NCBI GenBank assembly: GCA_030754885.1
Contig: JASLZL010000017.1
Span: 12,999 to 76,998 of the forward strand
Reading direction: 5' to 3'
DNA from: Rhodospirillales bacterium
Lineage (GTDB): Bacteria > Pseudomonadota > Alphaproteobacteria > Rhodospirillales > JASLLZ01
Length of the DNA stretch: 64,000 nt
Made by a program: the position numbers and the translations under genes. Of this stretch, positions 2,063 through 8,164 are shown piece by piece. The notes under the pieces were generated by a model, which was not told the origin of the DNA, made no database searches, and saw nothing but the letters and a program-made list of their open reading frames with translations. Position 1 is the stretch's first letter, and each line of letters begins with the position of its first letter.

Positions 2063-2815
2063 ATGAAGACTTTCAAACCAGCCGCGCTTGTTCTCGCTCT
2101 GGCCGTGACCGCCCTGACCGTAGGCGGTTGTGCCGACACCTTGGATAAACTCGCCGCCTTCTTCGATCCGGCCCGGGACGGCCCCGCCGTGAACGAGGAC
2201 GAGATCGCGGCACTGGCTGAATTTCCGACCGCCGCGGGAAAGACCGAGGACAGCGCCGTCGCGGCCCTGACCCCGGCCAAGAAAGAGCCCGCATCCACCC
2301 ACCCAGCCGCCCGCCACATAGAAAAGCTGGGCGACGAGGTGATCGCGATTCTCAAAGACACCTCGATGTCGAAGGATCAGCGCATCGCTTATTTCCGCGA
2401 CCTTTTGGCGCGTGATCTCGATATTCCCCTGATCGCCCGTTTTGTCACCGGCAAGCATTGGAGATCGGCTTCTCCGGATCAGCGCCGATCCTATCTTGAG
2501 GTCTTCTCCGCCTTCGTCGTGCAGACCTATTCGGCGCGCCTTGGCGGCGCCGACGTCGGGCAGATCCAAGTTCTGGAGACCCAGCCCGTCGGCAAAAGCG
2601 ACATCTTGGTGCGCTCACGCGTTATCCAGTCCCACGGCGCTCCGCTCAGGGCCGACTGGCGCCTGACCAACACGAACGGCACCTTCCGTATCCTCGACCT
2701 ATCGGTGGAGGGCATCAGCATGGCGCTGACCCTGCGCCAGGAATTTTCGTCGGTGCTGCGCCGCAAGGGCGGCGTCGACGGCCTGATCGCCATCCTCAGG
2801 GAAAAGGCGGTCTAA
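2063..2815 (+). CDS. mlaC: MlaC/Ttg2D-family phospholipid-binding protein with N-terminal lipoprotein-like extension
   Basis: DIPLIARFVTGKHWR and ILDLSVEGISMALTLRQEF motifs; signal peptide ending VGGC. Confidence 0.8.
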   Translation: MKTFKPAALVLALAVTALTVGGCADTLDKLAAFFDPARDGPAVNEDEIAALAEFPTAAGKTEDSAVAALTPAKKEPASTHPAARHIEKLGDEVIAILKDTSMSKDQRIAYFRDLLARDLDIPLIARFVTGKHWRSASPDQRRSYLEVFSAFVVQTYSARLGGADVGQIQVLETQPVGKSDILVRSRVIQSHGAPLRADWRLTNTNGTFRILDLSVEGISMALTLRQEFSSVLRRKGGVDGLIAILREKAV

Positions 2816-2819
2816 GGCG

Positions 2820-3383
2820 CTAGTCATCCTCTGGCGGCGGGCGGCGTTCGCAGGGGACGGAGTCGTCGCCGAACGACAGCAAACAATTGTCCTCCATGAT
2901 CCGGCGCAGGGCAGTCCGACCCCGGTGTAAGAGAACCCGCGTGTTGGCTGTCGTGAGGTCAAGCAGCGCCGCCACCTTGCGGTGCTTGAGGCCGGCCATG
3001 TCGTGTAGCGCGACCACCTCGTACTGAGACCGCGGCAGACGGGCCAGGAACTCGCCGATACAGGCCGACATCTCGGCCTGAAGCAATGCCTGCTCGGCGT
3101 CATTGCCGTCGAACGGCACCTCATCGATGGCTTGGTCATCGGCCACGGCATCGGGTATGCGTGTCTGGGCGCGATAATGGTCGCGCACCAGGTTGAGGGC
3201 GATGGCCGAGAGCCAACTGGCCACGACCGCCTCGCCCCTGTACGTGCCCACCCGGCGCTGGGCACGCAGGAACGTCTCCTGGGTCAGGTCCTCGGCCAGG
3301 GCCTCGTCGCCAACCAGACGCAGCACGAAACCCCGCACTCGGGGCCGCTGTTCGGTGATTTCGTCCAACGAGACTTCGTTCAT
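2820..3383 (-). CDS. ECF RNA polymerase sigma factor with short Cys-containing C-terminal tail
   Basis: Region 2 AEDLTQETFLRA/WLSAIALNLVRDHYR; region 4 VAALLDLTTANTRVLLHRGR; own RBS GGAAGGG before ATG at 3383; forms the C-terminal part of the 612-aa ORF. Confidence 0.9.
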   Translation of the reverse strand: MNEVSLDEITEQRPRVRGFVLRLVGDEALAEDLTQETFLRAQRRVGTYRGEAVVASWLSAIALNLVRDHYRAQTRIPDAVADDQAIDEVPFDGNDAEQALLQAEMSACIGEFLARLPRSQYEVVALHDMAGLKHRKVAALLDLTTANTRVLLHRGRTALRRIMEDNCLLSFGDDSVPCERRPPPEDD

Positions 3384-3397
3384 GGGACGTCCCTTCC
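3380..3397. repeat. 18-bp direct repeat copy 1 (TCATGGGACGTCCCTTCC)
   Basis: Identical to 4655-4672; contains palindrome GGGACGTCCC plus RBS and ATG of the sigma gene. Confidence 0.9.
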
Positions 3398-4658
3398 CTC
3401 TTGATGCGTGGGATCTCCCGCCACCTCTTCCGCGCCGTCGGACAGGGTGAAGACCTCCTGCGGGGCGCGGACGCCGCGCAGGGCGTGGCAGCCGAGTGAC
3501 TTCATCTGGCCGGGAAAGCAGCGCGGGAACGCCGACGAGATGAGGATCGATTGGTCCAGAGTTTTGCACAGGCCCTCCAGGCGTGCCGCCTCGTTGACGG
3601 CGGCCCCGATGACCGTGAATTCCAGGCGCTCGGGCACCCCGATGTTGCCGTACATGACGTCGCCCACATGCAGCGCCAGCCCGTAATGGATGATCGGCTC
3701 GCCCCGATCCCGGCGCCGCCCGTTGACAGCCTCGACGCGGGCCCGGGCGTCGCGCGCAGGCGCCTTCCTCGGGCGTGCAGGACTCCTCCAGGATCCGCGA
3801 CGCGGTGCCGATGGGAAAGATGGCCAGCGCCGCGTCGCCGATGAAACGCAGCACTTCGCCACCGTGGTCCAAGACGGCACCGGCCATGCCGTCGAAAAAA
3901 TCATTGAGCATGGCGAGGAATGCCTCGGGCACCATGGACTCGGCCAGGGTCGTCGAATGGCGCAGATCGCAGAACCAGATCACGGCGTAGATACGCTCGC
4001 CGTCACCCCGTTTGACAAGCCCGTCGAGGACACGCCCGCCGGTGTGTCGGCCGAGATAGGTTTCGATGAGGGTCCTGGAAGTGCGGCGCAGGGTATGGAC
4101 TTCGAGCAAGCGCGCCAGCACCGGCAGCATGCCGGAGACAGTCTCCAGTTCGACCTCGCCGAAACCGCCGGGGCGATCGGCGGCCAGGGTCAAGGCATTG
4201 ATCCTGCCGTCCTGGAAAAGAAGTGGCAGGGCCACGTAATCGGTGCCGCCCTCCGCCACCAGGTCCTCGAGGTAGGGGAAATCGAGCTTCGGGTTCCGAC
4301 CGTCCAAGCGGCGGCGGATGGGAGCGGCGCCGTCGAGGATGGCGGCAATCGGGCTCTTCAGGTAAATCGCCGTGCGCAAGGCGTCGTGCGAAGGCGAAGA
4401 GACCTCGGTTTGACCCGTATCGCGGCGCCATGTGTAGCGGATCCCGAAGACCGGGGGATGGGGAACGCGGATGACCACCCGCATCCTGAGAAGCGGCATT
4501 CCCGCTTCCACCATTCGCTCAGCCAATCGTCCGACAAGGTCCGTCGGCTGGTCCACGTTCCAGCCTTCGGCCAGCAGCCAACCGACCAAGGGATTGGCGA
4601 GCGCCGGGGCGCCGGCGTCGGCCGACGAGGGCTCGCTTGTCTGGGTCAGCGCGGTCAT
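3380..4658 (-). pseudogene. Class III adenylate/guanylate cyclase, frameshifted near 3750-3765
   Basis: N-terminal half (IWFCDLRHST, VLRFIGDAALAIF) in ORF 2820..4658; C-terminal half (LHVGDVMYGNIG, FTVIGAAVNEAARLE) in a different frame, ORF 3380..3904. Confidence 0.85.
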
Positions 4659-4672
4659 GGGACGTCCCTTCC
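4655..4672. repeat. 18-bp direct repeat copy 2 (TCATGGGACGTCCCTTCC)
   Basis: Identical to 3380-3397; contains RBS and ATG of the cyclase gene. Confidence 0.9.
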
Positions 4673-4756
4673 GCTGTCATCCATTCTAGAACACCTCCCC
4701 CGGCCCGTGGAAGGAATTTCGAATTCCGACCGGCACGGAATCGGGCCTTCCCCTAA

Positions 4757-4788
4757 TAGACGCCGGTGCATGGAGAAACGTTACAAGG
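4757..4788 (-). promoter_or_regulatory. ECF-type promoter for the cyclase-sigma transcript
   Basis: Minus strand reads CCTTGTAAC-gtttctccatgcaccgg(17)-CGTCTA. Confidence 0.75.
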
Positions 4789-4812
4789 ACGTTCGAAAAC
4801 ACGATAAGCGGG

Positions 4813-4844
4813 CCTTGTAACGTTTTACGGCCGCGCAACGTCTT
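4813..4844 (+). promoter_or_regulatory. ECF-type promoter for the CMD gene
   Basis: CCTTGTAAC-gttttacggccgcgcaa(17)-CGTCTT; mirror image of the minus-strand promoter. Confidence 0.75.
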
Positions 4845-4899
4845 AGGGGTAGGAGCAAAAATCCTATTCGAACCATGAGTAACAAAAAAGGAGGTCACG

Positions 4900-5418
4900 A
4901 TGACCCTGAGGTTGAAGGAAAAGGAACTGGTGGCGGTGGGAGTCTCCGTCGCCGCCGGTTGCAAGCCGTGCACCGACTATCACGTCAAGGCGGCGCGCAA
5001 GGCCAAGGCGACCGATGACGATATCCGCCAAGCCATCGCTGACGCCACGGAGGTCTGCGGCTACGCCCAGGCGATCATGACGGCCCATGGCCTGGCGCAC
5101 CTGGGTATCGCCGGCGAGCCGGTCGAAACCGGAACCTCGCCCGAAACAACGCGGACCACGGAATTGGTCGCCATCGGGGCGGCCTTCGCCGTCAACTGCA
5201 CGGCCAGCCTGGAACGGCATCTGACCGGCGCCGGCCGCTTCGCCATCACCGCCGAGGACGTGGACTCGATCGTCAAGCTCGCCCGCTTCATCAAGGGCAA
5301 AGCAGCATCCCATGTCGACAAGCTGGTCGGCCTCGACGAGACGGATGAAGAGGCGACGCCGGAGAAGACCCAAGGGGGGTTCTTGAAACGCGCCATGAGC
5401 GGCGTCTGCGGCTGCTGA
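4900..5418 (+). CDS. Carboxymuconolactone decarboxylase/AhpD-family protein with two CMD repeats
   Basis: KEKELVAVGVSVAAGCKPCTDYH and ELVAIGAAFAVNCTASLERH; GGAGG RBS; C-terminal CGC. Confidence 0.85.
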   Translation: MTLRLKEKELVAVGVSVAAGCKPCTDYHVKAARKAKATDDDIRQAIADATEVCGYAQAIMTAHGLAHLGIAGEPVETGTSPETTRTTELVAIGAAFAVNCTASLERHLTGAGRFAITAEDVDSIVKLARFIKGKAASHVDKLVGLDETDEEATPEKTQGGFLKRAMSGVCGC

Positions 5419-5439
5419 TAAGAGCGGCGAACAAACGAC

Positions 5440-5463
5440 AAGGCCCGCGATATCGCGGGCCTT
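5440..5463. terminator. Perfect palindrome, likely terminator between convergent CMD gene and rpmB
   Basis: AAGGCCCGCGAT|ATCGCGGGCCTT. Confidence 0.7.
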
Positions 5464-5490
5464 TCATGGCGGGTTGCCGGGCTCCGACCC

Positions 5491-5784
5491 TCAAGCCGCC
5501 TTGGTTGCCAGGGCCTTCTTGATGCGCTTTTTGATGCGCCGCACCTCGGGCGCCAGATCGGTGTCACGGGCGCCGACCAAGAACGTATCCAACCCACCCT
5601 TATACTCGATGGTGCGCAGAGCGTGGACGCTGAGCCGCAGGCGGACCTTGGTGCCCAGGGCGTCGCTATAAATCGACGAGACCTGAAGATTGGGCAGGAA
5701 GCGCCGTCGCGTCTTGTTGTGGGCGTGGCTGACGTTATTGCCGGTCTGCACGCCTTTGCCCAGGATGGGGCACCGTCTGGCCAT
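5491..5784 (-). CDS. rpmB: 50S ribosomal protein L28
   Basis: MARRC...[20 protein letters not shown]. Confidence 0.97.

Positions 5785-5911: not shown

Positions 5912-8164
<2,253 letters not shown>

Follow-up and report, generated by a model that had tools for sequence, protein, structure and literature searches.

An exact 18-nt repeat at the starts of a cyclase gene and an ECF sigma gene, perhaps a passive scar of copying within an accessory module

The window (the whole stretch of 64,000 nucleotides that was analysed) carries, near its left end, genes for an ECF sigma factor, a class III nucleotidyl cyclase and an AhpD/CMD-family protein. The starts of the first two share an exact 18-nt direct repeat. 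The features of this region are as follows.

2820..3383, minus strand: ECF sigma-70 factor of 187 aa with Cys108 and the C-terminal Cys167 and Cys178 (Pfam); no adjacent anti-sigma gene
3060..3062, minus strand: Cys108 codon (TGT), intact in the window; recurrent 107-aa sigma forms end just before it
3380..3397, minus strand: repeat copy A, with the SD and ATG of sigma; overlaps the stop of the cyclase C-terminal part (ATGA) and encodes G-R-D-V-P-stop
3380..3754, minus strand: C-terminal portion of the class III cyclase, which in the window does not share the frame of the start codon; matches P0361 (intact, 432 aa)
3754..3764, minus strand: here a 20-nt deletion shifts the frame of the window allele and joins the cyclase N-terminal part in frame to sigma (612 aa)
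3755..4658, minus strand: N-terminal part of the class III nucleotidyl cyclase, 432 aa in the intact allele (PF00211 on P0361; PDB matches)
4262..4264: insertion site in other population alleles (insert of at least 1.2 kb in run X1, 3-nt overlap); the insertion is absent from the window
4655..4672, minus strand: repeat copy B, with the SD and ATG of the cyclase
4759..4785, minus strand: predicted ECF-type promoter TGTAAC-N17-CGTC towards cyclase and sigma; recurs in relatives
4816..4842, plus strand: predicted ECF-type promoter TGTAAC-N17-CGTC towards CMD; pattern match
4900..5418, plus strand: 172-aa protein of the AhpD/CMD family (the commonest allele encodes 173 aa), with a CxxC motif and a C-terminus rich in Cys; PF02627, and TIGR00778 over its cut-off
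5440..5463: hairpin resembling a terminator, between CMD and the gene that follows, which is convergent with it

The sigma factor contains the Pfam domains Sigma70_r2 and r4_2 only, and its best NCBIfam match is SigZ (TIGR02959), at 91 bits under a cut-off of 168.65. Its three cysteines are invariant in 14 of 14 aligned homologues. Homologues that carry an organism name are frequently from Rhodospirillales. The neighbours are mlaC, the cyclase and CMD, with no anti-sigma gene among them. A search of 40 related genomes returned no close orthologue (best 28-35%), and the only other genome of the family (G001) gave no sigma match. Shortened forms of 107 aa occur as three different proteins (P0415, P0419 and P0425) on six contig records, and are probably products of a nonsense allele. 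One of them, P0425, and a 91-aa cyclase piece, P0366, give the same longest contig value, 7995.

The cyclase is best judged from the intact allele, P0361, which matches PF00211 at 26.3 bits (cut-off 21.9); the PDB matches are class III adenylate cyclases. In an alignment of ten sequences D231, D275 and N362 are invariant and R366 is nearly so, and we take these residues to be the two aspartates and the Asn/Arg pair of the class III catalytic domain. The encoded protein has the attributes of a class III nucleotidyl cyclase, with ATP or GTP as its predicted substrate. In the window, the frame opened by the ATG at 4658 departs from the cyclase near residue ~300, passes through unrelated residues and continues into sigma, which gives a single ORF of 612 aa. 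This fusion (2820-4658, minus strand) has been deposited as protein P0417, and sigma retains its own start within it. The sequence-only reading had placed the cyclase stop inside the copy at 3380, which is accurate for the C-terminal frame, which ends there, but not for the frame that begins at 4658. It had also described the tail ahead of that stop as unlike a cyclase; its length is not unusual, since an end motif can be recognised in 116 homologues and the tail reaches 19 aa or more in 17 of them.

The locus was examined in eight metagenome runs of the 22 listed (X1, X3, X4, X9 and X15-X18; seawater, marine and vent metagenomes), at the level of contigs, which drop rare variants. The 20 extra bases at ~3754 are present in contigs of X4, X9 and X15, and the window allele in X1, X3 and X17. 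A separate lesion, the insertion at 4262-4264, appears in X1, X3 and X4, where it is evident from loose ends and contig pieces and from protein fragments of 160/161 aa and 299 aa; X1 holds both alleles, and X9 crosses the site without an insertion. The 27-30 end bases seen of this insertion include no obvious terminal inverted repeats, and its ends were sought in the source genome assembly (G000; 3,114,608 bases in 131 contigs, 94.7% complete) and not found. Only 6 of the 14 members of the cyclase protein cluster (14 contig records) are full length, the remainder being pieces of 299, 160/161 and 91 aa, consistent with the frameshift and insertion lesions; the corresponding full-length counts in control clusters are 7 of 7 for mlaC, 11 of 12 for a 194-aa neighbour and 7 of 9 for CMD. 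Hence, the cyclase is broken in the population by routes other than recombination at the repeat, and the cyclase/sigma/CMD module as a whole looks relaxed or decaying in the source species. The CMD of the window is itself one cysteine short, having A at position 5418 (codon 5416-5418) where seven of eight runs have C, and the commonest protein is 173 aa long.

The repeat itself proved to be as the sequence-only reading had described it. Its two exact copies, at 3380-3397 and 4655-4672, are spaced by 1275 nt; on the minus strand each consists of an SD-like word and ATGA, with a 10-bp core between SD and ATG that is a perfect palindrome. The source genome holds two copies on both strands, unchanged when up to 2 mismatches are allowed (four further places resemble it at 3 mismatches). 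Outside this genome no match with up to 2 mismatches was found among the 274 loci fetched. The palindromic core occurs twice, both times inside the repeat copies, against a Markov expectation of 2.5, and neither leader folds more stably than its shuffles (z = +1.18, 0.01, -0.64 and +0.94). A nine-codon upstream ORF (4655-4684, minus strand) ends in copy B by an ATGA overlap like that of the cyclase on sigma and is probably accidental.

That the assembly created the repeat is a negligible concern, notwithstanding that the source assembly is in 131 contigs and that run X1 may be its source, because independent contigs contain it. Copy A is bridged by at least 31 nt on both sides in seven of the eight runs and copy B in three, with contigs from other studies, including P3 and P4, among those spanning the repeat; the tail G-R-D-V-P is present in cyclase cluster members read from many contigs. 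No joint of 3397 to 4673, the mark of a looped-out cyclase, occurs in the contigs of any of the eight runs, in which a rare empty allele could be missed, and the only joints listed are two short ones inside the cyclase from low-identity contigs. X16 and X18 do not cover ~3714-4690 save for one 32-base piece in X16; this gap, whose edges have neither joint nor loose end, is a hole in coverage and does not count as evidence.

Cyclase, cysteine-bearing sigma and AhpD/CMD genes form an accessory module with predicted twin TGTAAC-N17-CGTC promoters. The source genome contains five such patterns, two of which are the back-to-back pair between cyclase and CMD, and further instances precede homologues of sigma or CMD at one locus from the metagenome and genome scans (L039) and in seven genomes (G178, G118, G045, G324, G070, G258 and G330). 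A sigma-70 promoter scan of 2700-5600 found none, and a TAGAAT word noticed by eye at 4683-4688 was accordingly not taken as a promoter. Searches for CMD homologues, over 400 genomes each, gave 10 genomes of the order, 3 of the class and, in the class of another genome (G401), a single one, with its match at a contig end. Seven of the 13 CMD loci examined have a sigma gene nearby, and one (G484) has a truncated cyclase of the same subfamily. At that locus (L257, 3359-4924) CMD is followed by the cyclase, which lacks its N-terminal part and is 69.5% identical over residues 191-413, and no sigma gene lies within 9.5 kb. A gammaproteobacterial record has two consecutive accessions (MFB3082060.1 and MFB3082061.1) for CMD and for a cyclase of 61% identity.

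What lies between promoter and sigma differs among relatives. The slot is empty in six loci (L039, G324, G070, G258, G330 and L059) and filled in five others, by a DUF2852 gene (G178), a 59-aa Cys-rich ORF (G118), a 64-aa ORF (G045) and 83-aa ORFs (L119 and L120); the two starts in these filled slots share 4-9 nt (the sigma starts of L119 and L120 are estimated). The ORF in G118 (L260, ~1855-2035) is rich in both Cys and Met and lies between an ECF-type promoter and sigma. Among the matches listed, the metagenome and genome scans gave 160 sigma-relative loci, of which one, L039, is close, and none has a cyclase in its fetched flank. L039 has the arrangement that had been predicted for an empty allele, in which CMD and sigma diverge from each other with no gene between them; its identity of 59% means that it is no allele of the present locus. 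Because the slot is empty or filled by other genes, with no repeats, the cyclase is an added, optional passenger, recurrently linked to this CMD family. None of 76 matching plasmid records covers 80% of the module, and a viral scan gave seven distant loci, which were left out of the comparison. In G001 the genes that follow mlaC are located on a different contig of the source genome. The module lies at a break in synteny with G001 (window positions 2816 and 5480; L261 and L262), both flanking genes being differently neighboured there.

A sister lineage places limits on the age of this arrangement. Its proteins are 87% (cyclase, P0122), 88% (sigma, P0002) and 80% (CMD, P0243) identical to those of the source species, and each lists in ENA a longest contig of 8651 bases, from which equal value the three genes are apparently on one contig, in a lineage known from proteins alone. 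Together with the similar divergence, this suggests that the three-gene set probably predates the split of the two lineages. The similar divergence of the three proteins and their matching GC3 (cyclase 0.81/0.85, sigma 0.81, CMD 0.84) are evidence against a recent arrival of the cyclase, which probably came earlier. Hence, an optional slot between an ECF-type promoter and sigma is supported and a recent insertion is not. Other candidate same-contig pairs were set aside: P0218/P0340 were dropped, as their sources and lengths differ, and P0229/P0105 (3527) and P0234/P0280 (2178) were not counted, as they have no accessions and may agree by chance.

The sister cyclase aligns up to Q-E-G, where copy A begins, and then continues nine residues longer. 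In back-translation its last 30 codons, known as protein only, have in every case at least 6 mismatches to the 18-mer. The 16 residues before the repeat are identical to the sister at 7 positions, as against 369 of 412 in the rest of the cyclase, and beside so fast-evolving a stretch it is unlikely that both copies remained unchanged since the split; we estimate 1-7%. When a gap is allowed, the best-case back-translation of the sister end comes within 2 mismatches and a 2-nt gap of the repeat, and 5.5% of 1,500 random C-termini do equally well, so this resemblance does not separate copying from an old duplication.

We give about even odds (roughly 0.5) to the interpretation that the two 18-mers are a passive, recombinase-free copying scar, in which the start region of the cyclase was copied onto the start of sigma. 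The cyclase would have joined a pre-existing ECF-sigma/AhpD module, and a single later event would have copied its RBS and start region to the start of sigma, over a distance of 1.3 kb, overwriting the final cyclase codons, probably by a short template switch or a single-strand patch at a microhomology. We infer in what order this happened and by which route the copy was made. What is observed comprises the repeat, the overlap of stop and start, a slot of variable content, the proteins of the sister lineage, the broken cyclase and the truncated sigma forms. At present the repeat would act just as a pair of start sites for translation, with stop and start overlapping in ATGA, and it would permit a rare, one-way deletion of the cyclase; there is no sign of programmed or frequent excision. 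Copying is favoured because the sister alignment breaks exactly at the edge of copy A, because the sister tail cannot hold the 18-mer, and because in the five other filled slots no more than 9 nt are common to both starts. A templated mutation, or SPDIR, is expected to leave an exact copy of a template of up to 100 bp, and copies A and B are the same over 18 nt. No intermediates of the copying event were seen. As a counterpoint, the repeat could sit downstream of the sister's stop, the sister lineage being seen through its proteins. SPDIR frequencies are given as ~1e-12 to 1e-13, which also weighs against copying (bioRxiv 10.1101/2023.11.22.568220).

In decreasing order of probability, the other explanations that we ranked are an old insertion duplication, chance, an operator and a programmed switch. 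The old duplication is a tentative alternative that we take seriously: the cyclase would have entered at the start of sigma, with 18 nt duplicated before the split from the sister lineage, and a later deletion at a microhomology would have trimmed its tail to copy A. Such a deletion would account for the break at Q-E-G, the empty slots of relatives and the absence of cyclases from the listed sigma-relative flanks are as expected, and the geometry fits, as one crossover between the copies would regenerate a promoter-RBS-sigma arrangement, in agreement with what the sequence-only reading had deduced from the repeat positions. However, this history requires both copies to have stayed intact over 12-13% protein divergence beside the fast-evolving tail, the five other filled slots have no repeat, and, more weakly, the last codons of the sister cyclase (D-E-V-T-S-stop) could themselves provide an SD and an ATGA overlap. 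Copying and old duplication alike are passive scars. Unlikely, in our estimation, is a chance identity of neighbouring translation starts that surfaced through the reading of very many windows, part of the match being explained by SD and ATG. In a genome-wide comparison of 1,809 ATG starts (1,635,336 pairs, with paralogues retained and the cyclase/sigma pair outside the set), four pairs have at least 18 nt in common around the start, which corresponds to at most ~0.004 adjacent pairs per genome, yet to as many as ~20 over ~250,000 windows. The probability of such a match is therefore small per genome, but it is not nil across a very large scan. Among 13,646 candidate starts, 12 nearby pairs have at least 12 nt in common: seven are tandem paralogues, one lies within one ORF, three join unrelated genes (12-13 nt), and, paralogues aside, cyclase/sigma (18) alone exceeds 13 nt. 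Chance also leaves it a coincidence that the sister alignment ends exactly at the edge of the repeat.

The perfect palindrome between SD and ATG in each copy might suggest that the 18-mer is a selected binding site for both genes, whether an operator or a translational control element. We regard this as quite improbable, in view of the chance-level count of the palindrome, the lack of near matches in the 274 loci, the absence of the 18-mer from the sister cyclase tail and leaders that fold no better than shuffles. Somewhat more doubtful again is that the repeat is a selected, recombinase-free contingency site in a module that senses through cysteines, at which the slot would exchange passengers (cyclase, DUF2852, small Cys-rich ORFs) at start signals and loop-out of the cyclase would place sigma under its own promoter. 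Very improbable is a programmed excisable cassette or phase-variation switch, in which loss of 1275-1295 bp would bring sigma to the start nearest the promoter. Deletion would leave sigma as a clean gene in its proper frame, and recombination between repeats shorter than 23-27 nt can do without RecA, becoming rarer as they lie farther apart (PMC3637634). A rare, one-way loss of the cyclase is therefore to be expected, and none was seen. Against a switch stand the lack of a joint in the contigs of all eight runs, a window with no PF00589 match, an 18-mer with no spaced binding arms, and a cyclase broken by two other routes.

In site-specific cassettes such as integron cassettes, Xer/dif modules and att-flanked islands, a single gene is flanked by direct repeats whose core is palindromic, and att sites are composed of spaced recombinase-binding arms. 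The 18-mer differs from these in having no nearby dedicated recombinase, no such arms, two copies only and no excision product seen. There are five PF00589 matches in the source genome. The nearest lies ~12.5 kb from the repeat and is closest to XerD, and a second is closest to XerC (partial domains, below cut-off); three more, on other contigs, have no tie to the repeat. We read the XerD-like tyrosine recombinase (positions 3378-3908 of contig C17, L270, outside the window) as housekeeping. PF00239, PF07508 and PF02371 were not found in the 94.7% complete genome, which further counts against a switch. The earlier statement that no recombinase is visible in the window agrees with these profile searches, which found no dedicated one there. 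The suggestion of site-specific recombination fared worse, for there is no linked cognate recombinase, no excision joint among the contigs and no conservation of the sites in relatives, be it at the 274 loci, in the sister tail or in other slots (at most 9 nt). Nor does the interval resemble a transposon, which would have a transposase and terminal inverted repeats inside the duplication: it encodes the cyclase alone, and none of the best 25 of 99 inverted-repeat pairs by length is end-paired around it.

Templated mutations arise by copying from imperfect repeats (PMC3016281), and SPDIR microindels measure 3 to ~100 bp (bioRxiv 10.1101/2023.11.22.568220). The 18-mer resembles both in that a short patch (<100 bp) would have been replaced at a microhomology with no recombinase. 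It differs in that its case is made by comparison alone and that its template is the start region of a neighbouring gene. The PeSLs that shuffle genes in T4-type phages (PMC2839356) are alike in that repeated regulatory sequences flanking a gene could bring about its deletion or circularisation; they are, however, multi-copy promoter/stem-loop cassettes with demonstrated mini-circles, whereas here there are two chromosomal 18-nt copies and no circle or empty allele was seen. The sigma factor, for its part, shares with the SigZ/CorE-like group ECF238 the lack of an anti-sigma, a Cys between regions 2 and 4 and a short Cys-bearing C-terminal extension. ECF238 members are described as lacking autoregulation and conserved promoters (PMC7826278), in contrast to the TGTAAC-N16/17-CGTC conserved ahead of sigma and CMD here (GTAAC-N-CGTC upstream of sigma). 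With ECF41 (PMC3426412) it has in common a linked CxxC carboxymuconolactone-decarboxylase-family gene and a bipartite, CGTC-ending promoter before both genes. It lacks, at 187 aa, the large C-terminal extension of that group, and its -35 element is TGTAAC, not the TGTCACA of the ECF41 promoter (TGTCACA-n16-CGTC).

As a scar, the repeat is ordinary: it adds one case of copying by short homology where two genes meet, and it cautions against taking every exact repeat of RBS and start on either side of a gene for the mark of a recent insertion. The more useful by-product is the ECF-sigma/AhpD module, with its predicted autoregulated TGTAAC-N17-CGTC promoter, variable first-gene slot and recurrent link to a cyclase subfamily. 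Our searches of open-access papers listed no description of it, and it is apparently undescribed. Such a module could couple thiol or metal stress with cyclic-nucleotide signalling. Elsewhere in the window, a large ORF at 5912-8164, presumably encoding a monomeric isocitrate-dehydrogenase-like protein, has a GC content of 0.53 and a GC3 of 0.59, as compared with a GC of 0.63-0.69 in its neighbours.
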